NCBI GenBank assembly: GCA_029259775.1
Contig: JAJDEN010000020.1
Location: 78,846-142,845 of the forward strand
Direction of reading: 5' to 3'
DNA: 64,000 nt
Origin: Planctomycetota bacterium
Lineage (GTDB): Bacteria > Planctomycetota > PLA2 > JAEUHO01
In this document: one piece after another, positions 2,280-56,324 of the stretch
How the letters are laid out: every line of letters starts with the position of its first letter
Numbering within the stretch: position 1 is the stretch's first letter
Position numbers and translations under genes: made by a program
The notes under the pieces: generated by a model
What the model was told of the DNA's origin: nothing
Databases searched by the model: none
Seen by the model: the letters and a program-made list of their open reading frames with translations, nothing else

Positions 2280-2873
2280 TCACATCTTGTAGCCCATGTC
2301 GCCGTGCTGCGCGAGTCGCTCTTCGTAGAAGCCCTCGGGGACATCGGGCAGGCCCGCGCCGTCCAGCCAGCGGTTGAAGAAGTTGAAGATCGCAGCGACC
2401 GTCAAGGCGTCGAAGAGCGCGTGGTCGCTCCAGCCTTCCTCCTTGGCGGCGTCGACGTGCGCTTGCGACGTCTTCGCGGGCTCGTCGTTGACGATCGCGA
2501 CGTAGCGCAGCAACGCCTTGTCCTTCTCCGGGAGATCCGAGTCCTCGAAGTCGTGGCACACGGCGTCGACCAGTGCCTTGTCTTCGAGGAGGTGGGCCGC
2601 GACCGCGGCGTGGGCTGAGGTTCAGAACACGCAGTGGTTGCGCGCCGAGACGAAGGCTGCGATCAGCTCACGCTGTCCCGCCGAGAGATCCGAGGGGCCG
2701 CGCATCACTTCGTCCATGAAGTTGCAGAGGTGCGGCGTTGCCTCGGGCCGTCCCGCGAAGAGGTAGTAGATGCCCGGCGGCTCGACGCCCTGCTTGCGGC
2801 TCGCCTCGATGACACGGCCGAAGCGGCCGGTCGCCTCGCCGCGCTTGGCGTCCAACAAGTCCTTCAGGAACAT
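2280..2873 (-). CDS. AhpD-like / carboxymuconolactone decarboxylase family peroxidase-related protein with an in-frame TGA at 2622-2624; candidate selenoprotein (CxxU) or nonsense pseudogene
   Basis: ORFs 2622..2975 and 2280..2561 are in the same frame, separated only by one TGA. Read-through gives ...ARNHCVF-U-TSAHAAVAAHLLEDKALVDAVCHDFEDSDLPEKDKALL, matching the AhpD CxxCxxxH motif with U at the second Cys. ATG at 2873 is preceded by GGGAGG. Confidence 0.6.
2596..2609 (-). other. SECIS-like hairpin candidate (GCCGC-GGUC-GCGGC) starting 12 nt after the in-frame UGA
   Basis: Inverted repeat read from the minus-strand mRNA. Apical loop contains GU, about 19-20 nt after the UGA. Short stem, not diagnostic on its own. 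Confidence 0.25.
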
Positions 2874-9798: not shown

Positions 9799-10278
9799 AT
9801 GCAAGCGGATGAGCCAGCGGCGAAGAAGAAGGCCGCCAGGAAGTCGGCACCGGTCGCAGCGAACGATGCCGCCAAGCCGAAGCTGCTCTCAGGCGGAAAC
9901 CCTCAAGTCGCGAAGGCCGACGGCGACGCCCCCGTGCAGATCTACATCGCAGCCATGCCGGGCTGGAAACGCGACGTCGGACGTGGCCTCGATGCGCTCA
10001 TCGCGCGCACCGTTCCCAACGTCCGCAAGGCCGTGCGATGGAACACGCCCTTCTATGGCATCGAGGGGCAGGGCTGGTTCCTCGCCTACCACTGCTTCAC
10101 GAAGTACCTCAAGGTGACCTTCTTCCAGGGTACGTCCCTGCGCCCCGTCCCGCCCGTCGCGTCCAAGCAAGAGAACGTGCGCTACCTGCACATCCACGAG
10201 GACGACGAGTTCGACGAGGAACTCGTGACGTGCTGGATTCAACAGGCCTCCGAGCTACCCGGCGAACGGTGCTTCTAG
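9799..10278 (+). CDS. DUF1801 (YdhG-like) domain protein
   Basis: Strong RBS GGAGGGAGG. Conserved YdhG-like core (VRWNTPFYGIEGQGWFLAYHCFTKYLKVTFF). Confidence 0.7.
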   Translation: MQADEPAAKKKAARKSAPVAANDAAKPKLLSGGNPQVAKADGDAPVQIYIAAMPGWKRDVGRGLDALIARTVPNVRKAVRWNTPFYGIEGQGWFLAYHCFTKYLKVTFFQGTSLRPVPPVASKQENVRYLHIHEDDEFDEELVTCWIQQASELPGERCF

Positions 10279-10293
10279 TCGCGGCCACGGAGG

Positions 10294-10986
10294 TCAACCG
10301 GGCTCGCCGAGGGCCGCCCGAAGCAAGGCGAGAAACAGTGGATGCGGCGCACCAGGGCTCGTGGAGAGCTGCGGCTGGTAGAGCGTTCCCACGAAGAACG
10401 GGTGATCTGGACGCTCCACCGCGCGGACGTCTCCGGTGTCGTCTACGGCGGCGATCCTCATCCCGCCCGCCGAAGCGAGTTCGTGAAGGTCCGGCCGTAG
10501 CCCGTAGTCGCATGTGGTCCTCTCGGTCGAGGTCAGGACTCCATGGGCACGCTGGAGCGACGATCCCGGCGTGAGCAAGACTTCGATCTCTCGATCTCGA
10601 AGCGAGCACGCCAGCTTCGTGATCACGGCGTCGCCGCCCTCGCCGTACTCCGCGTGTGACGCATCAGCGTTGCCCAGGATGTTTCGAGCGTGCTCGACCA
10701 GCACATGCTGAAACCCCGCTCAGGTACCAAGGAGAGGCAGGCCACGCTCCCGCGCATGCCGTATGACCGCGTACGCAGCTCCCTCGACGTCATAGGGACT
10801 CCCCGGACCGACGATGACGCCAGACCCCAGACGCCGGGCGTCACCGTCCCACGCGGGCGTGCGGACGACCCTGGGCACGACGGGGATCGACAGCTCCGCG
10901 CCAGCGTGCTCCAAGGCGCGGCATGTGGCCCGATGAAAGTCGTGGTCTGGGCGGAGGTCCATCAGCACCGAGACTTCGATCGTCAT
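10294..10986 (-). CDS. Class I glutamine amidotransferase (CTP-synthase C-domain-like) with an in-frame TGA at 10720-10722 replacing the catalytic Cys; candidate selenoprotein or nonsense pseudogene
   Basis: ORFs 10720..10986 and 10294..10704 share a frame and are separated by one TGA. Read-through gives ...RGLPLLGT-U-AGFQHVLVEHARNILG, against the GATase1 / CTP synthase motif GICLGMQ...EFARNVLG. Confidence 0.55.
10699..10710 (-). other. SECIS-like hairpin candidate (CAGC-AUGU-GCUG) starting 9 nt after the in-frame UGA, nested inside a GUUUC...GAAAC outer pairing
   Basis: Read from the minus-strand mRNA. GU in the apical loop about 16 nt after the UGA. Weak on its own. Confidence 0.2.
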
Positions 10987-11113
10987 CGTGGAATGCTACT
11001 CGACGTCCAGCCGCCAACGAGGGCGACATCGTGCCCGCACGGCGCCAACCCATCGACGCGCAAAACGCAGCCGCGCTCCTCGTTCGGCCGCGGAGACGCC
11101 CTGTCCGAATCAC

Positions 11114-11175
11114 TGCGGCGATCCGTGCGGCGATCCGTGCGGCGATCCGTGCGGCGGCCGTGCGGCGGCCGTGCG
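11114..11175. repeat. Tandem repeat (TGCGGCGATCCG)x3 + (TGCGGCGGCCG)x2 in the 515-nt intergenic region
   Basis: Direct repeats read from the sequence. Lies between the divergent GATase and S41 peptidase genes. Confidence 0.6.
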
Positions 11176-11502
11176 CTCCGGCCACCGCCAAGGTGCGACG
11201 ACGATTCCAACCTCCCCATCCTGGGAAGACGCCTCTCAGGTTTCCCGTACGGAGGGCCTCGCCCATCCGGCGCCTCATGGCTCGGTGATGCGCAAGGGCG
11301 GTGCGCTCGCTGGCGCACGCGGGCTGCAAGGACATCGCGTCGGGCTCCGACGTGGTGCGTCGCGGCCAACCCTCAGCCAACAGACCCGCTGCGGGTCCCC
11401 CTTCCACCTCAACTCGCTGCACGTCGGACGTGAATCCACCCGTGCGGCAATCGTGCCGAACGGAGGGGCGCAGTCCGCGCTGCTGTATCGTCGTTCGACA
11501 TC

Positions 11503-12480
11503 ATGCAGATTCCGGATCTTGTCGCCTGCTTCTTGGACCTCATCGATGCGAACTACGTCTTCCGAGAGAAGGCGGCCGCGATTCGGAATCGGATCGAGGA
11601 GCAGCTCGCAGCAGGGGCGTATGCGTCTCTCGGGCATCCCGCGTTCGCGGAGTCCATGACGGCCGACCTGCGAGCGTGCGCAGACGACCTCCACTTCAAG
11701 GTCATCCACAAGGAAGAACCGCAGCCGCTGCAGGAGACGGCGACAGAGGAAACGCCGGAAGACGTCGCGGAGTTCCGCAGGATCGCCCGATTCAACAACT
11801 ACGGCTGCTGCGAGGTGAAGCGGCTGCACGGCAACGTTGGATACTGGAAGATCGATGAGTTCTATGACCTCATCGACGGCAGTGGTCCCACGTTCGTTGC
11901 CTCGATGAGCATGCTGGCCAACACGGACGCGATCCTCGTTGATGTACGGGACAACTCGGGCGGAGACCCCGCCGCCGTTGCCCTCGCCTGTTCGTTCTTC
12001 TTCGATGTCGAGCCCGTTCTCCTGAACACGCTCGAGGGCAGGAAGCCCGACGCGGCACGCCAGTGGTGGACCCTGGCCCATCTCGAATGCGAGCGCTACC
12101 TGGACAAGGAAGTCTACGTGCTGATCAACAAGGGGACCGCCTCGGCTGCAGAAGAGTTCGCCTATGACCTGCAGGCTCTGGGCCGGGCCACGCTGGTCGG
12201 ACAATGCACCGCTGGTGCCGCCCACATTCGGGAGCAGTATCAAGTGGACGAGCACTTCTTCATAAACATCCCCATCCAGCGCGCCGTGAATCCGACGACG
12301 AGGACCAACTGGGAGGGCCACGGCGTCGCCCCCGACGTGGAGGCCGCGCCGGCGTCAGCGCTCGCTCTCGCGTACGGCATGGCCCTGCGCACGCTCTCCA
12401 AGAAGAGCGGATCGGCCAACGCGGAGCAGGATGAGATCCGACAGGCATTGGAGCAACTGTCCGAGGATGCCGAGAGCTAG
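11503..12480 (+). CDS. S41 family peptidase (C-terminal processing / tail-specific protease-like)
   Basis: ILVDVRDNSGGDPAAVA and VYVLINKGTASAAEEFAYDLQALGRATLVG (catalytic Ser/Lys blocks). The antisense 348-aa ORF is rejected. Confidence 0.8.
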   Translation: MQIPDLVACFLDLIDANYVFREKAAAIRNRIEEQLAAGAYASLGHPAFAESMTADLRACADDLHFKVIHKEEPQPLQETATEETPEDVAEFRRIARFNNYGCCEVKRLHGNVGYWKIDEFYDLIDGSGPTFVASMSMLANTDAILVDVRDNSGGDPAAVALACSFFFDVEPVLLNTLEGRKPDAARQWWTLAHLECERYLDKEVYVLINKGTASAAEEFAYDLQALGRATLVGQCTAGAAHIREQYQVDEHFFINIPIQRAVNPTTRTNWEGHGVAPDVEAAPASALALAYGMALRTLSKKSGSANAEQDEIRQALEQLSEDAES

Positions 12481-29270: not shown

Positions 29271-31337
29271 ATGAGGTTTATCCTCTTGGCACCCGCCCCG
29301 GAGATCCAGCCTGTGAGCAACCCGACCGCACGCGCGTCCGACTCTCGCCTCAGCCCGCTGCCGGGGAAAGGCCTGCTGCGCCTCTTCGCAGGGGCCATGG
29401 CGCTCCTCGTGGTCATCGCCGGCATCACCGACATCGGCCATGCCCGCGAAGATGGCGTCCGCGACGTCGCGGACTGGCGCCGGGTCGTCGCCGCCGTCGA
29501 CGGCACGATCGAGGCCAAGCTGGCGGAAGAAGGCGTGAAGCCCGCCGCCCGCTCGGGCGACAGCGAGTTCCTGCGCCGCCTCTACCTCGACGTGCTCGGC
29601 ACCGTGCCGACACCCGAGGAAGCCGACGCCTTCCTGAACGACAAGCGCGAGGACAAGCGCGCCCGCAAGATCGACGAGCTCATGGCCTCGGAGACCTTCG
29701 CCGAGAACCAGGCGTCGTTCTGGTTCCGCACCCTGACCGGCTTGAGCGTCCATCAGCAACGCCAGCGCGAGGGCCAGGGCGGCCGCTACGTCACGGGCGA
29801 CGCCGGCCAGAAGTTCCACGAGTGGCTCAGCGGCCAGATCAGCCAGAACCGCCCGTGGAGCGAGATGGCCGAGGACCTGATCTCCGCTACCGGTCGCACC
29901 GACGAGAACGGCGCGGCGGTCTACCTCGCCCGCTGGGAAGGCGAAGTCAACAACACGGCCGGCGCCGTCGCCAAGCACTTCCTCGGCGTCCAGATCCAGT
30001 GTGCCCAGTGCCACGACCACATCTACGAGCCCGACTGGAAGCAGAAGGACTTCGAGGGCATGGCCGCGTTCTTCGCGCTGACATCGGTTCGTCGCGTGCC
30101 CGAATACGGCCAGCTGCGCCAGCTGCGGCGCGCCATGCAAGACATCCAGCAGGGCAAGGCGCCCGGCACCTCCAAGCAGGGCAAGGGTCTCGACCTCCGC
30201 CGCAGGAAGGGCAAGGGCCGCCCCGGCGCCGACATGCCTGGTGAGATGGGCGGTGAGATGGGCGGCGAGATGGGCGGAGGCAACGCGGCCCCGATGACCC
30301 GCTCGGACGTCCAGAAGAAGCTCCGGGACCTCGCCAAGTACCGCAACATCGTCGAGGTCCGCGACGCGGCCGTGAACCCGCGCTACGCCGACCGCATGAT
30401 GCGCCGGCTCAAGAACGCGAAGAACGAGGAGCTGCGCGCCCGCGCGAAGCTCATGTCGACCACGCCCAAGTTCTGGCTGGCCTCGCAGGCGGCCGACTTG
30501 CCGGGCGTGTCGCGCCGCTACCTGCTGGCGCGCTGGGTGACCTCGAACGAGAACCCCTACTTCGCCAAGTCGCTGGTCAACCGCATGTGGGGCCAGTACA
30601 TGGGCCGCGGCATCGTCGATCCCATCGACGACTTCAACAGCTTCCAGGCGCCGTCGCACCCCGAGCTCCTGAAGCTCCTCGCCGAGGACTTCCGCGCGAG
30701 CGGGCACGATCTGCAGCGCCTGCAGAAGATCCTGCTCAACTCCGCGACGTACCAGCGCAGCTCGCGTTGGAGCGCCGAGGAACAGCCGGACCCGGCGCTG
30801 TTCGCGAAGGCGCCGGTTCGCTCGCTCAACACGGAGCAGCTCTACTTCGCCCTCGTCCGTGCCACGGGCATGGAGAAGCGCCTCGATCGCGTCTCACGCC
30901 GCAACGGCCAGGCGATCCAGCGCGCCATCTTCTCGACCTTCACGTTCGTCTTCGATGACGACGAGGGCAAGGCCGAGGAGGACTTCTCCGGCAGCATTCC
31001 GCAGGGCCTGTTCCTCATGAACGGCGAGCTGATCCAGCGCGCCTTGAGCGGCGGCCGCGACCTGCCCTCGGGTGCGTCGGACAGGCAGCGCCGCAACCGC
31101 CGCAACCGCATGCGCAACCGTCCCGCGCAGACCATGCTCGAAGACCTGCTTCGCACGGAGACGAGCGACAGCGCTCGCGTCGATCAGCTCTACGTGCGCG
31201 CCTACGGACGCCACGCCGATGCGGCCGAGCGCCGCGGCGCCGTGAGTTTCGTGAAGTCCAAGGGCGGCGGTGCCGCGGCCTACGAGGACTTCTTCTGGGC
31301 CATCCTCAACTCCGCCGAGTTCATGACGAACCACTAG
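29271..31337 (+). CDS. DUF1549/DUF1553 (PSCyt2/PSD1) domain protein
   Basis: FLRRLYLDVLGTVPTPEEADAF; GVQIQCAQCHDHIYEPDWKQKDFEGMAAFF. Contains a (GEMG)3 micro-repeat. Confidence 0.75.
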   Translation: MRFILLAPAPEIQPVSNPTARASDSRLSPLPGKGLLRLFAGAMALLVVIAGITDIGHAREDGVRDVADWRRVVAAVDGTIEAKLAEEGVKPAARSGDSEFLRRLYLDVLGTVPTPEEADAFLNDKREDKRARKIDELMASETFAENQASFWFRTLTGLSVHQQRQREGQGGRYVTGDAGQKFHEWLSGQISQNRPWSEMAEDLISATGRTDENGAAVYLARWEGEVNNTAGAVAKHFLGVQIQCAQCHDHIYEPDWKQKDFEGMAAFFALTSVRRVPEYGQLRQLRRAMQDIQQGKAPGTSKQGKGLDLRRRKGKGRPGADMPGEMGGEMGGEMGGGNAAPMTRSDVQKKLRDLAKYRNIVEVRDAAVNPRYADRMMRRLKNAKNEELRARAKLMSTTPKFWLASQAADLPGVSRRYLLARWVTSNENPYFAKSLVNRMWGQYMGRGIVDPIDDFNSFQAPSHPELLKLLAEDFRASGHDLQRLQKILLNSATYQRSSRWSAEEQPDPALFAKAPVRSLNTEQLYFALVRATGMEKRLDRVSRRNGQAIQRAIFSTFTFVFDDDEGKAEEDFSGSIPQGLFLMNGELIQRALSGGRDLPSGASDRQRRNRRNRMRNRPAQTMLEDLLRTETSDSARVDQLYVRAYGRHADAAERRGAVSFVKSKGGGAAAYEDFFWAILNSAEFMTNH

Positions 31338-31394
31338 TCGGCCGCCACGAGACCAACCCGCCAGCCCCCGTTCTGCATCCTTCAGGAGTCCGTC

Positions 31395-32768
31395 ATGTGC
31401 AAGCAATGTGACAACGCCACGCCCGCCCCCGTCTCGCGCCGCAACGTCCTGCGCTACAGCGCGGGCGCGATGGCCGCCGCCGGTGTGCTCGCGACGCCCT
31501 TCCGCCACGTCTTCGCGGAGGAAGGCACGGATCAGGTAGACAAGGCCATCGCGAACCGAGGCAAGGCCAAGCAGGTCATCGTGCTCTACATGAGCGGCGG
31601 CGCGAGCCACCTCGATACGTTCGATCCGAAGCCGGGTGCCGCCACGCAGGGCGACACGCGTGCGATCGACACCAACGTGACGGGCGTCAAGATCGCGAAG
31701 ACATTGCCCCAGATCGCCAAGCACATGAACGACATCGCGCTGATCCGCGGCATGTCCAGCAAGGAAGGCAACCACGAGCGTGCGCGCTACTTGATGCACA
31801 CCGGCTACCCGCCGACGCCGACCGTGGTCCACGCGGGCCTCGGCTCGATCGTCTCGCACGAGATGGGCGTCAAGACGGCCGAGCTGCCCGAGTACATCGC
31901 CATCAACGGCCCGGGCGCACGTCCCGGCTACCTCGGTGTGCACCACGCCCCCTTCGCGATCCAGGTCCGTGCCCCCGAGGGCGGCTCGGACGAGCGCGGT
32001 CGCCGCCAGCGGCCCGGCCAGAAGACGGGCGGCGCCGTCGTGCAGAACCTCACGCTGCCCAAGGGCGTCACGAAGGAGCGTCGCGACGAGCGCGTCGGCT
32101 TCCTCGAGAAGCTCAACCAGCGCTTCAGCAAGGACCGTACGAAGAGCGTCGGCGAGGCGCAGCAGGCCATGTTCGAGCGCGCCCGGCGCCTGATGGACTC
32201 GCCCAAGAACACCGCCTTCGATCTCAAGAGCGAGAAGGCCTCCACGATTGCGCGCTACGGCAAGACGCGCTTCGGCATGGGCTGCCTCATGGCCCGCCGG
32301 CTCATCGACGAGGGCGTCAAGTGCGTCGAGGTCCTCATGGGCGGCTGGGACACGCACGACGACGGATTCAACAAGGTCCGTGGACTCAACGCACAGCTCG
32401 ACCCGGCCGTCGCCGCGCTGATGGACGACCTCAAGTCGTCCGGCAAGTTCGACGAGACGCTCATCGTGTGGGTTGGCGACTTCGGTCGCACGCCGCGCAT
32501 CGACACGGGGCGTAACGGCCGCGGTCACTACCCGCGCGCCTGGTCGGCGTGGCTCGCCGGCGGCGGCGTCCAGGGCGGCCGCGTGATCGGCAAGACCGAC
32601 GCGAAGGCCGAGACGGTCGTCGACGGCGCAGTGAAGCCCGAGGACTTCTACGCCTCGATCATGCACGCCACCGGCATCGATGCGTCGAAGACCTTCTACA
32701 CAGGCCAGGGTCGGCCGATCCAGATCGTCTACAAGGACGGCCGCGTCGTGAAGTCGCTGTTCGCCTGA
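31395..32768 (+). CDS. DUF1501 domain protein (sulfatase-like, Tat signal)
   Basis: RBS AGGAG. Twin-arginine-like leader SRRNVLRYSAGAMAAAGVLA. Canonical partner of DUF1549/DUF1553. Confidence 0.8.
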   Translation: MCKQCDNATPAPVSRRNVLRYSAGAMAAAGVLATPFRHVFAEEGTDQVDKAIANRGKAKQVIVLYMSGGASHLDTFDPKPGAATQGDTRAIDTNVTGVKIAKTLPQIAKHMNDIALIRGMSSKEGNHERARYLMHTGYPPTPTVVHAGLGSIVSHEMGVKTAELPEYIAINGPGARPGYLGVHHAPFAIQVRAPEGGSDERGRRQRPGQKTGGAVVQNLTLPKGVTKERRDERVGFLEKLNQRFSKDRTKSVGEAQQAMFERARRLMDSPKNTAFDLKSEKASTIARYGKTRFGMGCLMARRLIDEGVKCVEVLMGGWDTHDDGFNKVRGLNAQLDPAVAALMDDLKSSGKFDETLIVWVGDFGRTPRIDTGRNGRGHYPRAWSAWLAGGGVQGGRVIGKTDAKAETVVDGAVKPEDFYASIMHATGIDASKTFYTGQGRPIQIVYKDGRVVKSLFA

Positions 32769-39559: not shown

Positions 39560-42500
39560 CTAGAGGTTGCGGCGGTACTTGCCGCCGACCTCGTAGAGCG
39601 CATTCGTGATCTGCCCCAGCGATGCGTGGCGCACGGTTGACATCAGTTCCTCGAAGACGTTGCCGCCCGCGCGAGCGACTTCCTTCAGGCGTACGAGCGC
39701 GGCCGCGGTATCGCCGGCGTGTTCGGCCTGGAACGACGCGAGGTGATCGAGCTGGGTCTGCTTCTCCTCCGTCGTCGCCCGGGTGAGCTCGGCGACGGCG
39801 GGGGTCATGTCCTCGGCGTCGTCCGGCAGGAAGGTGTTGACGCCGATGATGGGCAGCGAGCCGTCGTGCTTGCGCTGCTCGTAGTAGAGGCTCTGGCTCT
39901 GGATCTCGCCGCGCTGGTATTGCGTCTCCATCGCGCCGAGCACACCGCCACGGTCGTTGATGCTCAGGAACTCGTCCAGCACGGCACCCTCGACGAGATC
40001 GGTCAGATGATCGACGAAGTAGCTGCCCTGGAGCGGGTTCTCGCTCTTGAGCCAGCCGAGCTCGCTCGTGTTGATGAGCTGGACGGCCATCGCGCGGCGC
40101 ACGCTCTCCTCGGTCGGGGTCGTGATGGCCTCGTCGTAGGCGTTCGTGTGCAGCGAGTTGCAGTTGTCCTGCAACGCGAGCAGCGCCTGCAGGGTCGTGC
40201 GGATGTCGTTGAACTGGATCTCCTGCGCGTGCAGGGAACGTCCGCTCGTCTGGATGTGGTACTTCAGCTTCTGGCTGCGCCGGTTGCCGCCGTAGCGCTC
40301 GCGCATCGCCACCGACCAGATCCGCCGGGCGACGCGACCGATGACCGTGTACTCGGGATCGAGTCCGTTGCTGAAGAAGAAGGACAGGTTCGGCGCGAAC
40401 TCGTCGATGTGCATCCCGCGCGCGAGGTAGTACTCGACGAGGGTGAAGCCATTGGCGAGGGTGAAGGCCAGCTGGCTGATCGGATTCGCCCCGGCTTCGG
40501 CGATGTGGTACCCGCTGATCGACACGCTGTAGTAGTTGCGCACCTTCTTGCGGATGAAGTACGCCTGGATGTCGCCCATCATCTTCAGCGCGAAGTCCGT
40601 GCTGAAGATGCAGGTGTTCTGGGCCTGGTCCTCCTTGAGGATGTCGGCCTGCACGGTCCCGCGCACCATCATGAGCGTGCGGTCGCGAATGCTCGTCCAC
40701 TCGTCGGGGGTCGGAGCGCGCCCCTGCTCCTTCTCGAAGGCCGCCGTCTGCTGGTCGGTGGCGGCATTGAGGTACATCGCGAGAATGATCGGCGCCGGGC
40801 CGTTGATCGTCATCGACACCGAGGTGTTGCGATCGCACAGATCGAAGCCGCTGTAGAGGATGCGCATGTCGGCGAGCGTGCAGACCGACACGCCGCTCTC
40901 CCCCACCTTGCCGTAGATGTCCGGCCTCAGGTGCGGGTCCTCGCCGTACAGCGTGACCGAGTCGAACGCCGTAGAGAGCCGTGTTGCCCGCGCGCCGCTC
41001 GAGAGGTAGTGGAAGCGCTTGTTCGTCCGCGCGGGCGTGCCCTCGCCGGCGAACTGGCGCTTCGGATCCTCGTCGACGCGCTTGAAGGGGAAGACGCCGG
41101 CCGTGTAGGGGAACTCGCCGGGCACGTTCTCGAGCAGCAGGAAGCGCAACGCGGCGCCGGGCTCGTCGATGGCCGGCAGGGTCACCTTGGGAATGCGAAG
41201 TCCCGAGAGGGACTCGGTGGTCGCGCGCGCGGTCAGCGGGTGGCCGCGGACCTCGTAGACGATCTCGTCGCCCGCGTACTTCGTTCGCATGGCGGGCCAG
41301 GCGGCGAGCAACTCGGCCGCGCGCGGGTCCAGGCGCTTGCGGGCACGCTCGAGGGCTGCTTCCAGGCCCGGGCGTGCCGTCTCGTCCTCGATCAAGGCGA
41401 GCGCGCCCTCGAGGTGAGCGACGTCGCGGGCGAGCTGCCCCTGTTGGTCGGCCCAGGCGCGGTAGTCGCGCACCGAACGCACGATCTCGGCCAGGTAGCT
41501 GGTGCGGTCCGCCGGGATGATCGCGCCGTGCGTCTCGCCGTTGCGCTCCGCGGCGGACGGCGGCAGACGGAACGGGGGCGCCTTGCCTCCGAGGGCGCCG
41601 GCGCGCAGGGCCAGCGCGCGGAAGAGATCGTCGACGCCGCGGTCGCAGAAGCGGCTTGCCACCGTGCCGAAGACGCCGAGGTCTTCCTCGGGCGCCTCGA
41701 AGGCCTTGCGGTTGCGCCGGACCTGCTTGCGCACGTCGCGCAGTGCGTCCGCGCCGCCGCGTCGGTCGCTCTTGTTGACGGCCACGAGGTCCGCGTAGTC
41801 GAGCATGCCGATCTTCTCGAGCTGCGAGGCGGCGCCGTACTCCGGCGTCATCACGTAGAGCGAGAGGTCGGAGAGTTGGCTGACCTCGGTGTCCCCCTGC
41901 CCGATACCGCTGGTCTCGACGATCACCCAGTCGAAGCCGGCGAGACGGCAGAAGCGCACCGCGTCTTCGGTGGCCTCGGACAGCTCGCCGCGCGCGCCGC
42001 GCGTAGCGAAGCTGCGCATGTAGGCGCGCGGATGCGGCAGCGAGTTCATGCGGATGCGGTCGCCGAGCAGCGCGCCGCCGGTCTTGCGGCGGGACGGATC
42101 GACGCTGATCACCGCGACGGTCGCGTCGTCGCTCAGCTCGAGGAACCGCAGGACGAGCTCATCGACGAGCGAGGACTTGCCCGCGCCCCCTGTGCCGGTG
42201 ACCCCGATCACGGGCGCGCGCTCGTTCTGGGGGATCTGATCCACGGCCAGGCGCAGGGCGCCGCCCAGCGGCGTGTCGCCGAAGCCCTCCTTCTCCGCGG
42301 CCGTCAGGCACTGGGCCAGCAAGCGCTGGTCGCTCGCGCTGACGTCGGGCAGCGTCGGCGAAGCCGTGTCGATCACGCTCGGCAGCGGGACCGCGGCCTC
42401 CTCGAGCATGATGTCGATCATGCCCTGCAGGCCCATCTTGCGACCGTCCTCGGGCGTGAAGATCCGCGTGACGCCCGCGGCGTGCAGCGCCGCGACCTCC

Positions 42501-42823
42501 TCGGGCACGATGACGCCCCCGCCGCCGCCGAACAGCTTGATGTGCTCGGCGCCGCCCTCTCTCAGGAGCTCGAGGGCATAGCGGAAGTACTCGTTGTGGC
42601 CGCCCTGGTAGGACGAGATGGCAATGCCCTGGGCATCCTCGGCGATCGCGGCGCGGACGACCTCGTTGACCGAGCGGTTGTGGCCCAGGTGGATCACCTC
42701 GGCGCCGGAGTCCTGCAGGATGCGGCGCATGATGTTGATGGCGGCGTCGTGGCCGTCGAACAACGAGGCGGCAGTCACGAACCGCACAGGCTGGGCGCAG
42801 ACGGGGGTGACGGTGTCGCTCAT
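39560..42823 (-). CDS. icmF: Fused isobutyryl-CoA mutase (B12-binding domain + MeaB-like GTPase + mutase domain)
   Basis: 1087 aa. N-terminal B12-binding (DGHDAAINIM). P-loop GVTGTGGAGKSS. C-terminal methylmalonyl-CoA-mutase-like domain. Confidence 0.85.
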   Translation of the reverse strand: MSDTVTPVCAQPVRFVTAASLFDGHDAAINIMRRILQDSGAEVIHLGHNRSVNEVVRAAIAEDAQGIAISSYQGGHNEYFRYALELLREGGAEHIKLFGGGGGVIVPEEVAALHAAGVTRIFTPEDGRKMGLQGMIDIMLEEAAVPLPSVIDTASPTLPDVSASDQRLLAQCLTAAEKEGFGDTPLGGALRLAVDQIPQNERAPVIGVTGTGGAGKSSLVDELVLRFLELSDDATVAVISVDPSRRKTGGALLGDRIRMNSLPHPRAYMRSFATRGARGELSEATEDAVRFCRLAGFDWVIVETSGIGQGDTEVSQLSDLSLYVMTPEYGAASQLEKIGMLDYADLVAVNKSDRRGGADALRDVRKQVRRNRKAFEAPEEDLGVFGTVASRFCDRGVDDLFRALALRAGALGGKAPPFRLPPSAAERNGETHGAIIPADRTSYLAEIVRSVRDYRAWADQQGQLARDVAHLEGALALIEDETARPGLEAALERARKRLDPRAAELLAAWPAMRTKYAGDEIVYEVRGHPLTARATTESLSGLRIPKVTLPAIDEPGAALRFLLLENVPGEFPYTAGVFPFKRVDEDPKRQFAGEGTPARTNKRFHYLSSGARATRLSTAFDSVTLYGEDPHLRPDIYGKVGESGVSVCTLADMRILYSGFDLCDRNTSVSMTINGPAPIILAMYLNAATDQQTAAFEKEQGRAPTPDEWTSIRDRTLMMVRGTVQADILKEDQAQNTCIFSTDFALKMMGDIQAYFIRKKVRNYYSVSISGYHIAEAGANPISQLAFTLANGFTLVEYYLARGMHIDEFAPNLSFFFSNGLDPEYTVIGRVARRIWSVAMRERYGGNRRSQKLKYHIQTSGRSLHAQEIQFNDIRTTLQALLALQDNCNSLHTNAYDEAITTPTEESVRRAMAVQLINTSELGWLKSENPLQGSYFVDHLTDLVEGAVLDEFLSINDRGGVLGAMETQYQRGEIQSQSLYYEQRKHDGSLPIIGVNTFLPDDAEDMTPAVAELTRATTEEKQTQLDHLASFQAEHAGDTAAALVRLKEVARAGGNVFEELMSTVRHASLGQITNALYEVGGKYRRNL

Positions 42824-51379: not shown

Positions 51380-54300
51380 CTACGAGCAGCCGGAGGTGGC
51401 TCCGCAGGTCTCACACTTCTCACACGTGCCGTTGCGCACCATGGTGAACGAACCGCAGTCGGGGCAGGCGTCGCCGGTGTAGCCCTGCAGACGCGCCTTC
51501 TCGGCCTCGGTCATCGCCACGCTTCCGCGGTAGCTGAACCGCGCTTCGCGCACCTCGGAGCGGGTCTGGACCGTGACGTTCTCGGCCGACGGCGAGGCCG
51601 GCTGCGAGAGCGAGTAGCCGGTGCTCTTGGGACGCAGGGTCTCGCTCGCAAACACGCCTTTCGACGTACCCGCGCCATGCTCGACGCCGTGGCCGTTGCC
51701 GTTGCCATTCCCGCCTCCAGCGCCGCTTCCGCTGGCATGTGCCTCGCCGGACGCGCTCCCGTTGGACCCGCCCCCGTCAGCCCCGCCCGCATCAGACCCG
51801 CCCGCATCAGACACGTCCTGGGTGACCGTGCGCTCCTCGACGAGCTCTTCGCTGTCGTACTCGGGCGTGGCCTCGCCGGCGTCCGCATCGCCACGGACCG
51901 CGTCGGACGTGAGGTCCTCGGGCGTGACCTGCGCGAGATCCTTGCGGTCCAGGTAGGACACAGCCAGCTCGCGGAAGATGTAGTCGATGATCGACGTGGA
52001 CATCTTGATCCGGTCGTTGCCCTTGACGATGCCGTTGGGCTCGAAGCGCGTGAACGTGTAGGCGTCCACGAACTCCTCGAGCGGCACGCCGTACTGCAGG
52101 CCGATCGAGACGGCGATCGCGAAGCAGTTCATCAAGCTCCGGAAGGCAGCGCCCTCCTTGTGCATGTCGATGAAGACCTCTCCGATGTGGCCATCGGTGT
52201 ACTCGCCCGTGCGCAGGTACACCTTGTGCCCGCCGATCATGGCCTTCTGCGTGTACCCGCCGCGACGCTGGGGCATCCGGCGACGCTTGGACAGGTAGCG
52301 GACGACAACGCGCTCGCGGATCTTGTTCGCCGCGGCGCGGACGCGCGTGTCGAGGCGATCGCTGACGAGATCTTCGGGCCCGGTCGCATCGGGGCCGGTG
52401 GCGTTGGGATTGCCACCCTCGGCCTCCTCGAGCAGCTCGGCGAGATCGAGCTCGGTCGTCGTGTTGAGCGGCTGGCTCAGCTTGCTGCCGTCGCGGTAGA
52501 GCGCCATCGCCTTGATCATCTTGCCCCAGGAGAGGCGGTAGGCGTCGGTGACGTCCTCCACGCTCGCCTCGTGCGGCATGTTGATCGTCTTGCTGATCGC
52601 GCCGGAGATGAACGGCTGCGCGGCCGCCATCTGATTGATGTGGCCGACGGCCGAGATCGAGCGCTGGCCGTAGCGGCCGCACTTGTTGGCGCAGTCGAAG
52701 ACGGGGAGATGTTCGTCCTTGAGGCCCGGCGCGCCCTCGATGGTCATCGTGCCGCAGATGGCGTCGTTGGCCTCGTGCACCTGGTCCCGATCGAACCCGA
52801 GGAAGCCCAGCAGGTCGAAGCTCGGATCCTCATAGATGTGCGTCGGCACCTTCAGCTCGTCGCGCAGGAAGTCGTCGCCCACGGTGAAGCGGTTGATGAC
52901 GAACGAGATGTCGAACGCGGACGGCAACTGCGCTTCGATCCGGTCGATGATCTCGGACGTGAAGCCCTTGACCCGCAGCGTCACCTCGTTGATCTGCGGC
53001 GCGCCCCTGAGCGACCCGGTGCCCTTGACGTACCGGACGATCTCCTCGGTCTGCTTCTCGTCGTAGCCGAGGTTGCGCAGCGCGATCGGGACCGAGCGGT
53101 TGATGATCCGGAAGTAGCCGCCTCCGGCGAGCTTCTTGAACTTGACCAACGCGAAGTCCGGCTCGATGCCGGTCGTGTCGCAGTCCATGACCAGACCGAT
53201 CGTGCCCGTGGGCGCGAGGACACTGACCTGGGCGTTGCGGTAGCCGTGGCGCTCGCCCTGCTCGACGGCGCGATCCCAAGCGTCACGCGCCGCGGCGACG
53301 AGGTACGACGGGCAGTGCTCGGGGTCGATGCCCATGGGCGTGACCGTGAGCCCCTCGTACTCGGCGGCCGGCGCGTCGTAGGCCGCGCGACGGTGGTTGC
53401 GCATGACGCGCATCATCGACGAGGCGTTGCGCTTGTGACGCGCGAACGGCCCGAGAGCCTCGGCCAACTCGGCGGAGGTGGCGTAGGCCTCGCCCGTCAG
53501 GATCGCCGTGATGGAGCCGTTCCACGAGCGGCCTTCCGGCGAGTCGTAGGGCACACCGAGCTGCATGAGCAGCGAACCGAGGTTCGCGTAGCCGAGACCG
53601 AGCGTGCGGTAGTCCCACGACAGGCGCGCGATGCGCTTGCTCGGGTACTGCGCCATCAGGACGGAGATCTCGAGCACCGTCGTCCAGATGCGAACGGCGT
53701 GGCGGAAGCCCTCGACGTCGAACGACCCCTCGTCCGCGTTGAAGAACGTCACGAGGTTGAGCGAGGCCAGATTGCAGGCCGTGTCATCGAGGAACATGTA
53801 CTCGGAGCACGGGTTGGACGCGTTGATGCGCCCGTCCTTCGGGCACGTGTGCCACTCGTTGATCGTCGTGTCGAACTGGACACCCGGGTCGGCGCAGGCC
53901 CACGCGCTGTAGGCGATGCGCTCCCAGAGGTCACGAGCCCGCAGGGTGCGCGCGATCTGGCGCTCGCCCTGGGGGCCGGGCGTGCGCAGGTAGAGGTGCC
54001 ACTCGCGGTCGTCTTCGACAGCCTTCATGAAGTCGTTGTCGAGACGAACGGAGTTGTTCGAGTTCTGGCCGGAGACGGTGACGTAGGACTCGCTGTCCCA
54101 GTCGGTGCTGTACGTCGGGATGTCGATGCCGGAGAAGCCCTGCTGCGCGAGGGAGACGCAGCGCATCACGTAGTTCATCGGGACGAGCGCGTCACGGGCC
54201 GCCTTGATGGCGACGCGCAGGCGGCTGTTCTGCTTGGGGTCGAAGCGGGCGTCCTCATCGCTGCAGTCCGCGCGCAGCAGGGGATCGGCGCAGGCGCCAA

Positions 54301-55216
54301 AGACGCCGTTGAGCGACTTCTCGAGCATGCGCGAGCCAGACACCAGCGCGGCGACCTTCTGCTCCTCGCGGGACTTCCAGTCGACGAACTCCTCGATGTC
54401 GGGGTGGTCGACGTCGAGGCAGACCATCTTGGCCGCACGACGGGTCGTGCCGCCCGACTTGATGGCGCCGGCTGCGCGGTCGCCGATCTTGAGGAACGAC
54501 ATGAGGCCGGAGGACTTGCCGCCGCCCGAGAGGGGCTCGCCCTCGCCGCGCAGGGCGCTGAAGTTCGTGCCGGTCCCCGAGCCGTACTTGAAGAGACGCG
54601 CCTCACGGACCCAGAGGTCCATGATGCCGCCTTCGCCCACGAGGTCGTCGCCGACGCTCTGGATGAAGCAGGCGTGCGGCTGGGGCCGCTCGTAGGCCGA
54701 CTTGCTCACGTTCAGCCGGCCCGTCTCGGGATCGACGTAGCTGTGGCCCTGGGCCGGACCGTCGATGCCGTAGGCAAAGTGCAGGCCTGTGTTGAACCAC
54801 TGCGGGCTGTTCGGCGCGCAGCGCTGGTCAGCGAGCATGCGGCACAGCTCGTCGTAGAACGCCGACGCGTCCTCCTCGCCGTCGAAGTAGCCGTAGCGCT
54901 CGCCCCAGTGGGTCCAGCAGCCGGCCAGGCGGTGGAACACCTGCCGGGCATCGGTCTCGCCGCCGCAGACCTGCTCACCGCCCGAGTCCAGGACGGGGTC
55001 GCCCGACGGATCGGTCTGGGGCACGCCGGCGCGGCGGAAATACTTCTGGGCCAGCACGTCGGTGGCGACCGAGGACCAGGTGGCCGGGACGCTCACGTCG
55101 TCGAGGTGAAAGACGACCGTGCCGTCCGGATTGCGGATCTCCGAGGTCCTGGAGCTCCACTCGATCCCCTCGTAGGGGTCCTGCCCGGCGGTCGTGAATC
55201 GACGACTGAACTTCAT
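51380..55216 (-). CDS. nrdJ: Adenosylcobalamin-dependent ribonucleoside-triphosphate/diphosphate reductase, class II, with a low-complexity Gly/Ser/Asn insert and C-terminal zinc ribbon
   Basis: RBS AGAGG at the [20 protein letters not shown] start. Class II RNR blocks throughout. C-terminal CPDCGS...CEKCETCG. Confidence 0.85.
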
Positions 55217-56324
55217 ACGTGCCTCTCTCGCAGCGCGCACACGCGCGCGATCTCTCAAATAGCCGTGTCGAAATGAACGTGTTGTCTGCCTGGGCGTGCC
55301 GCGCCGACTGACATGACGTCAGGCGGCAAGACATCCCTGGAACGTCTCTCCCCAGGAGGATCTCTCCCCAGGAGGAGTCGTGCCCCTGGCGATCTGCATT
55401 GGATCCGCCCAGGCGGCGGCCCAGCGCGCCCCCTCCAGGCTCGCTCGTTGCCGTACCCGTCGCATCCCGTCGCACATCGCCACGGCACTGCTTCGCAGCA
55501 CTGCACTGCTTCGCAGCACTCAGGCGCGCGTCACGGCAACGCCCGACAGCCCGCCGCAGGCAGCGCCTCGGAGCCCGCCGCCGTTGCGGCCGGCCTCCCG
55601 GGACTCCCGCCTCCCGGGACTCCCGCCTCTCGGGACCTCCCGGGGCCTTCCCCGAAGTCGTCCCGAAGGTGCTGCCAAACGTGCCGTCGGGCGATCCCGA
55701 CCAACGCAACCCATCTGGTGCCAACCCCAACAGGTTGTGGTCCCATGGGGGTGACTCCACAGCATGTCGTAGCACGACCGCCGTGAGAGCGCACGAAGAA
55801 GTTCCGTCGCCAAACCGGATGGCAGCCACTCTCGGCCGCGTCACCAGCTCCACGAGCCCGCCTCACGAACCCGCCTCACGAAGGACAGGCGCCCGCGACC
55901 GGGTTCCTGTGCTGTGCGACGCGCTTCCGCAACGGATCCCTCCGCAACGAGACGCATCCCTCCGCGAAGAGACGGATCCCTCCGCGGCGAGACGTAACCG
56001 CTTCACCCCCCAAGACACGCCTGTCCGGGGTCGAAGAAGTTACGCCCGGGGTGGGACAGTCCCGGGCGGGGTAGGGATCCCGTCGCCGGCGTCCGTGCGG
56101 CAGTGAGGAGGCAGCCTGACGTGCCCCCAAAGCGTCCAAATCCACACCGGCCTGCGCCGCTTCTTGCGGCCGTCTGAAGCCAGTCTGGCGCGCTCGCGAC
56201 GAGCCATCGACGTCCAAGCGCCACCAATGGGGCTGCGCGGGATGACAGACGCCGACAACCGGAATCGCGACGCGATTTGGCGCGAACCAACCGTCCGCCT
56301 TCGGGGTTCGTATAGATAGACGAA

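Follow-up and report, generated by a model that had tools for sequence, protein, structure and literature searches.

The closest described relatives of the gene considered in this work are found in a predicted family of selenocysteine (Sec) proteins and in the glutaminase domain of CTP synthase (PyrG). The deep-Sep study (2025) predicted a Sec-containing "glutamine amidotransferase (COG0504, PyrG)" in Desulfosediminicola ganghwensis and reported that TGA- and Cys-containing homologues of this PyrG-like protein occur elsewhere (PMC12013277). A 2026 review, citing deep-Sep, lists the Sec PyrG-like family as a selenoprotein with the motif GxUxG (PMC13188914), and the corresponding NCBIfam family, NF004836, already carries the name '(seleno)protein'. 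Here, we analysed a 64-kb stretch of contig JAJDEN010000020.1 from a probable Planctomycetota host (64,000 nt, hereafter the window), in which the minus strand at 10294..10986 carries a stand-alone coding sequence resembling the glutamine amidotransferase (GATase) domain of CTP synthase. As seen from its translation and its matches to NF004836, PF00117 and structures in the PDB, the product comprises 230 residues followed by a stop, with Sec proposed at residue 89. It is very likely that this is an intact gene for a 230-residue selenoprotein in which UGA is read as Sec. This reading rests on a TGA codon that homologues conserve and that is flanked on either side by sequence under purifying selection, on a downstream hairpin of the selenocysteine insertion sequence (SECIS) type, and on another candidate selenoprotein gene within the window.

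An in-frame TGA codon at the nucleophile position

Translation of the minus strand from 10986 to 10294 gives a single frame of 231 codons, which starts with ATG at 10986, ends with the true stop TGA at 10296..10294 and contains one internal stop. The two listed open reading frames, 10720..10986 and 10294..10704, share this frame and are split only by the TGA at 10722..10720, as the initial annotation had described. The internal TGA (10720..10722, minus strand) is codon 89 and lies in the context LLGT*AGFQHVLVEHARNILG, so that the proposed Sec would occupy the nucleophile position in GT-U-AGFQH. In alignments with CTP synthases from the PDB, the codon falls on the Cys of GICFGFQ or GICLGMQ; the placement of the stop exactly on the catalytic Cys, which had been deduced earlier from motif similarity, was thereby confirmed. 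Apart from this TGA, the gene contains no stops or frameshifts. TGA also terminates 9 of the 32 confident genes of the window, and UGA is therefore not reassigned genome-wide. Furthermore, the Logan assembly of run SRR15505517 is 100% identical to the window over 1738 nt including the TGA, which means that the codon is not an artefact of one assembly.

At least 33 homologous genes, from several phyla, have TGA at the equivalent codon. A species-level genome scan (one genome per species) yielded 80 loci, the best match being 62% identical, and 28 of these carry TGA in the context PLVGT*GGFQH(V/M)LVEHAR; they belong to metagenome-assembled genomes (MAGs) of Dormibacterota, Acidimicrobiia, other Actinomycetota and Chloroflexota. 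Beyond these 28, four further loci (L082, L083, L084 and L087) also have TGA at this codon. The loci from Acidobacteriota and Solirubrobacteraceae have TGC or TGT at the site. An alignment of homologues, which had been suggested as a check on the Sec proposal, thus contains both states, some members carrying Cys and some TGA (80 loci and relatives). Among the full-length homologues in the alignment, Cys occupies the nucleophile column in 84 of 86, and the apparent Trp in a JGI gene call (P0002) is a TGA in the DNA. One sequence of the Sec subclade, from an ENA metagenome contig (P0008), has Arg in the Sec/Cys column (LVVTRGVFQHVLVEHARS). It may represent an inactivated copy or an error, CGA being one step from TGA.

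The protein search returned two classes of matches. The first consists of full-length Cys homologues with approximately 40-55% identity. The second comprises many matches of 131-148 residues that start with (M/V)LVEHAR and are 61-75% identical, and these are the C-terminal halves of genes that gene callers have cut at the equivalent TGA. The nearest relatives (L083, L084 and L087) are laid out like the window gene, with 88 codons, the TGA and about 140 further codons. Nearly all Sec-form genes start 82-91 codons before the TGA and continue for about 136-145 codons after it.

By comparing the window gene with that of L083, a dN of 0.34 and a dS of 1.57 were obtained for the N-terminal half (dN/dS ~0.22), and a dN of 0.19 and a dS of 1.27 for the C-terminal half (dN/dS ~0.15). 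These ratios are well below one at synonymous saturation, which indicates that both halves are retained as coding sequence. From the TGA to the next possible start codon there are five codons (G/A-G-F-Q-H), and these change almost solely at their third positions. Because their amino acids are conserved under such variation, these codons are evidently translated, and this speaks decisively against two separate polypeptides.

The SECIS-like hairpin and a second candidate gene

The prototype of the bacterial SECIS is that of E. coli fdhF, with the apical loop GGUC (G23/U24). Like bacterial SECIS elements, the hairpin of the window gene lies inside the coding region directly past the UGA and has a loop starting with GGUC. 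Unlike in the fdhF element, the G-U of the loop is 2 nt farther from the UGA, there is no obvious bulged U, and the lower stem is not maintained in homologues. The conserved apical part occupies 10689..10705 of the minus strand, with the stem U-GUGCU / AGCAC-G and the loop GGUCG at 10699..10695. Its core, GUGCU-GGUCG-AGCAC, is located at 10704..10690, and the loop begins 20 nt past the UGA. In this genome, the full hairpin with its lower stem extends over 10675..10718 (minus strand), and the segment 10722..10670 folds at -19.6 kcal/mol (z = -1.8). When the homologue alignment was inspected by eye, the columns of the lower stem were variable without clear compensation. The published model for bacterial SECIS elements requires a loop of 3-9 nt, a G in the first two loop positions, a spacing of 16-37 nt and a minimum free energy of -7.5 kcal/mol or lower (PMC13188914). 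The window hairpin agrees with all of these constraints, as it has the loop GGUCG, an upper stem of 5-6 bp, a spacing of 20 nt and a folding energy of -19.6 kcal/mol.

The hairpin was compared across 29 genes by RNAalifold and pair counts. In this alignment, 93% of the cells are paired, versus 22-63% after the partner has been shifted by one to three columns. A single pair covaries, occurring as GC in 12 genes, GU in 9 and AU in 8; here, a change from Val to Met (GUG to AUG) is offset by a synonymous change in a His codon (CAC to CAU). Moreover, an apical stem of 6 bp or more, capped by a G-first loop, occurs at the SECIS position in each of the 33 Sec-form genes. The initial annotation had pointed to a different hairpin, CAGC-AUGU-GCUG (10699..10710, minus strand), which overlaps the 5' arm of the conserved one. 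This small hairpin is indeed present 9 nt past the UGA, but it is GUGCU-GGUCG-AGCAC that is conserved. The small hairpin was rejected as a SECIS, as only 71% of its cells pair among the 29 homologues and no covariation was found, the G-C pair at columns 21/28 being broken in 21 of them. Judged from this alignment, CAGC-AUGU-GCUG is probably non-functional. Hairpins were also observed in Cys-form loci (L032-L080, mostly from Acidobacteriota), where stems of 6-9 bp with mostly GAUCG or AUC loops lie about 15-40 nt past the Cys codon. They could be fossil SECIS elements, a pre-adaptation or a by-product of self-complementary codons.

A scan for TGA-split frames revealed a candidate AhpD-like selenoprotein gene on the minus strand of the window (~2280..2873), with the TGA at 2624..2622 and a hairpin at 2609..2596. 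The context of the codon is ...RNHCVF*TSAHAAV..., which places the TGA at the second Cys of a CxxC motif and would give CxxU (HCVF-U-TSAH). The read-through protein is an AhpD-like 'peroxidase-related enzyme' that matches TIGR01926 with 107 bits (cut-off 81.8), and the CxxU form of this AhpD-like family is a known selenoprotein. Its fold is unrelated to that of the GATase-like protein, and it belongs to a classical thiol-redox family. The hairpin of the AhpD-like gene, GCCGC-GGUC-GCGGC, has its loop starting 20 nt after the U of UGA. It thus shares the GGUC loop with the hairpin of the PyrG-like gene, and the decoding signal would be present twice in one genome. On its two strands, the window holds 15 hairpins in total that combine a GGUC loop with a stem of 5 bp or more, and two of these follow the two Cys-aligned TGAs, at +20 and +23 nt. 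Two unrelated genes with an alike signal are the best available evidence that UGA is decoded as Sec in the organism. A third GGUC-loop hairpin (5 bp, at 11386 on the minus strand), which follows the TGA at 11411..11409 by 25 nt, was dismissed as a chance occurrence because that TGA lies in no coding frame; presumably, about 1-2 such coincidences would be expected by chance, as roughly estimated from the number of GGUC hairpins and the TGA frequency. A relaxed scan of the window for more TGA-split genes gave no other convincing candidate.

We hypothesize that translation of the PyrG-like gene starts at the ATG at 10986 and that Sec is inserted at the UGA (10722..10720) where termination would otherwise take place. 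The downstream mRNA hairpin, presenting its GGUCG loop 20 nt from the UGA, would recruit the SelB-GTP-Sec-tRNA(Sec) complex, and translation would then proceed to the stop at 10296..10294. The recruitment of SelB is suggested by the SECIS geometry and the loop motif of the hairpin.

Several observations weigh against this selenoprotein reading. ARAGORN found no tRNA at all in the 64-kb window, and hence no tRNA-Sec, and motif searches for SelA, SelB and SelD in the window gave nothing credible; the Sec-decoding trait of the organism is therefore deduced solely from the two candidate genes. The same motif searches in 87 fetched loci likewise gave nothing credible, and ARAGORN detected no tRNA-Sec in 33 related loci. 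As regards the hairpin, its covariation is modest, involving one pair only. It lies in the conserved HVLVEH segment, whose codons (His CAC with Val GUG, Leu CU. with Glu.AG) are naturally self-complementary, and a hairpin occupies the SECIS position in about one third of the Cys-form genes as well. Rfam was searched with the entire window, using gathering thresholds, and with 10250..11550 at E values up to 1; nothing relevant was returned, the only match being a chance one to a lncRNA. In addition, the window protein scores 218 bits against NF004836, which is under the cut-off of 260.

An alternative reading is a pseudogene, in which a mutation of TGC or TGT to TGA had destroyed the codon of the catalytic Cys and the gene was decaying. 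Either Cys codon can become TGA by one substitution, the searches of the window detected no Sec machinery, and the gene has a lower third-position G+C (0.75-0.77) than its neighbours (0.80-0.94). Decay is nevertheless very unlikely, as at least 33 homologues, spread over several phyla, share the TGA at synonymous saturation, dN/dS is well below one on either side of it, and the SECIS-type hairpin is conserved. Intact Cys in close relatives together with further decay at this locus had been named in advance as evidence against Sec, but the close relatives carry TGA as well and the gene shows no additional stops or frameshifts. Read-through without Sec, either by near-cognate insertion of Trp or Cys or as programmed read-through stimulated by the hairpin, would likewise be in line with the absence of Sec machinery from the 64-kb window and with the translation of a homologous TGA as W in the JGI call P0002. 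That W is a TGA in the DNA, and a Trp at the nucleophile elbow would be inactive. Cys is present in all relatives without TGA but one, which is the signature of a Sec/Cys pair; the SelB-type G-G-U loop is at the canonical distance, and the TIGR01926 gene in the same window bears an alike signal. Read-through of this kind is thus improbable.

The gene could also be taken for two coding units, an 88-residue N-terminal polypeptide and a 136-residue one starting from the GTG at 10704. Gene callers annotate it in this way in many assemblies, and many homologues have GTG or ATG six codons past the TGA. However, neither fragment would hold the nucleophile or the invariant GFQH, although those five codons are conserved; the start-like codon is the conserved Val/Met of HVLVEH, and the Cys-form homologues are single chains. 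Two polypeptides are accordingly considered highly improbable. A sequencing or assembly error, which had also been put forward as a possible origin of the stop, can practically be dismissed, since the independent Logan assembly (L081) is identical over the whole compared length and the TGA is conserved in homologues. The proposal of the initial annotation that UGA encodes Sec at the nucleophile position of a class-I-GATase-like protein is, taken together, well supported by the conserved TGA, selection, the hairpin and the second gene.

Fold, active site and family placement

With Cys substituted for the stop, the window protein matched the GATase family PF00117 with 33.5 bits (gathering cut-off 22.8), and CTP synthase chains in the PDB were matched in their C-terminal glutaminase domain with E values down to 3e-18. 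An AlphaFold model of a Cys sister (P0003), which is 52% identical to the window protein, has a pLDDT (predicted local distance difference test) of 94.7 and a template modelling (TM) score of 0.90 to CTP synthase GATase domains. In this model, Cys84 is located at the strand-turn-helix elbow, between the strand 80-83 and the helix 85-97. Judged from the model of the Cys sister, the window protein is predicted to share the fold of the CTP synthase GATase domain and to carry Sec at the nucleophile elbow. In fold and elbow, it would resemble the PyrG GATase (E. coli 1S1M, S. solfataricus 3NVA), and it also keeps the Gln of GxQ and the Glu of the S-T-E motif (E113).

Unlike PyrG, the window protein has no synthetase domain, its nucleophile is proposed to be Sec, and the His-Pro-Glu motif has become Gln-Pro-Gln. 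The triad His is not retained, as Gln204 aligns with the His in 3NVA and 9KAO and the family column is Gln or Val. Neither is the triad Glu: Gln206 stands at its position, and the column is Gln in 105 of 108 members. HPE is thus QPQ in the window protein and [Q/V]PQ across the family, and the oxyanion motif PGGFG is replaced by PGSPY. The PyrG motifs GGTMRLG and RHRHRYE correspond in the window family to motifs that each bear an invariant Cys. The earlier assignment to the class I GATases is therefore borne out by the PF00117 match and the fold but not by the active site, since two residues of the Cys-His-Glu triad, His and Glu, are substituted throughout the family. Because the family is without these two GATase residues, the label 'glutamine amidotransferase' should be used cautiously.

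The two extra Cys residues, C127 (in CSL) and C159 (in TTCDYGL), are invariant in 108 of 108 sequences, as are H94, H111, E113, R188 and E191. The window protein keeps all of the family-invariant PGSPY, R79, Q93, H94, E98, H111, C127, E155, C159, R188, E191 and P205, and further residues shared by the family are H111xE113, P205-Q206 and H215. No conserved neighbour gene that could act as a partner synthase was found among 33 Sec-form loci, and synteny was seen solely among close Acidimicrobiales MAGs. Our best guess from the conserved residues is that Sec/Cys89 is a nucleophilic or redox-active residue, perhaps acting with a resolving Cys, and that the protein is not a classical His-assisted glutaminase. 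More speculatively, it might be a non-glutaminase with a new redox or metal centre formed by Sec/Cys89, C127, C159 and His, or alternatively an enzyme that hydrolyses amides via a selenoester acyl intermediate; we regard such chemistry as possible but doubtful. To our knowledge, nearly all known selenoenzymes are oxidoreductases.

NF004836 was the best NCBIfam match of the Cys-substituted protein (E = 9e-65), covering it end-to-end with residues 4-225 on profile positions 2-227 of 228; the next best match was CTP synthase, with 85 bits. The 218 bits of the window protein differ from the 286-300 bits of bona fide NF004836 members, as represented by the annotated proteins P0093 (300 bits) and P0097 (286 bits), and the Cys sister P0003, with 213 bits, is also under the cut-off. 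Being below this cut-off, the subclade is not rescued automatically in annotation. The Desulfosediminicola protein (...IPYLGTUSGFQHALVEY...) aligns with the window protein end-to-end, with the U in the identical column. Like NF004836 and its published Sec member, the window protein is stand-alone, has about 230 residues and shares the Sec column GT-U-xGFQH and the invariant residues. It differs from the Desulfosediminicola member in being only 32% identical to it, in belonging to a separate 'VEHARN' subclade and in its host lineage.

An alignment and a neighbour-joining distance tree were made from 108 family sequences. The window protein falls into the 'VEHARN' subclade of 30 sequences, which includes all collected Sec forms together with an HLLVEHARN subgroup of Cys forms. 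The subclade has the motif GT[U/C]xGFQH[V/L]LVEHARN and is represented in MAGs of Dormibacterota, Acidimicrobiia, other Actinomycetota and Chloroflexota as well as in the probable Planctomycetota contig of the window. The Sec form of Desulfosediminicola is placed among other Cys forms. Since it sits apart from the subclade in this distance tree, Sec was probably acquired more than once at the nucleophile position, although this conclusion is tentative. The initial annotation had considered the gene the possible founder of a new selenoprotein family. This has been overtaken by the prediction and naming of the family (NF004836; PMC12013277; PMC13188914), and the window gene is instead a new member that represents a sister subclade and a new host lineage.

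Genomic context and significance

Upstream of the gene, a tandem repeat with a 12-nt unit, TGCGGCGATCCG, is located at 11114..11175; as had been noted from the sequence, it is present, with 5.3 copies, 96% matches and a score of 96 in TRF. The repeat lies within the 516-nt divergent intergenic region between the 10294..10986 gene and an S41-peptidase-like gene on the plus strand (11503..12480). Neither a promoter-like site nor a meaningful Rfam match or coding signal was found in this region, and homologous loci do not share the repeat-bearing upstream context of the window gene.

One of the TGA-carrying relatives, on an ENA contig (L087, 1..20396), is embedded among genes for integrases and transposases (rve, HTH_Tnp_1, DDE_Tnp_1_6) and for phage portal and terminase proteins. 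This setting, together with the low third-position G+C of the window gene given above, makes horizontal acquisition of the latter plausible. Elsewhere in the window, gene content typical of Planctomycetota is found at 29271..32768, 39560..42823 and 51380..55258. It consists of the PSCyt2/PSD1 and DUF1501 gene pair, a fused IcmF isobutyryl-CoA mutase with 83-84% identity to Planctomycetota MAG proteins, and a TSCPD-domain ribonucleotide reductase of the B12-dependent class II. Judged from IcmF and from the PSCyt2, PSD1 and DUF1501 genes, the host is probably a member of the Planctomycetota.

For annotation, it follows that the window gene, its relatives in Dormibacterota, Acidimicrobiia and other Actinomycetota, and the AhpD-like gene are routinely split or truncated by gene callers. 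No new family is opened by the window gene, as the Sec form had been described and given a name before; to a selenoprotein family known from prediction only, it adds a separate subclade and a host that probably belongs to the Planctomycetota. If a redox or metal centre were indeed present, the enzyme chemistry would be one that has not been described. If the protein instead hydrolysed amides, it would be the first natural example of an enzyme working through a selenoester acyl intermediate. Should either kind of novel chemistry be true, the repeated swaps between Cys and Sec in this family would represent a natural test of the benefit of Sec at the nucleophile elbow.

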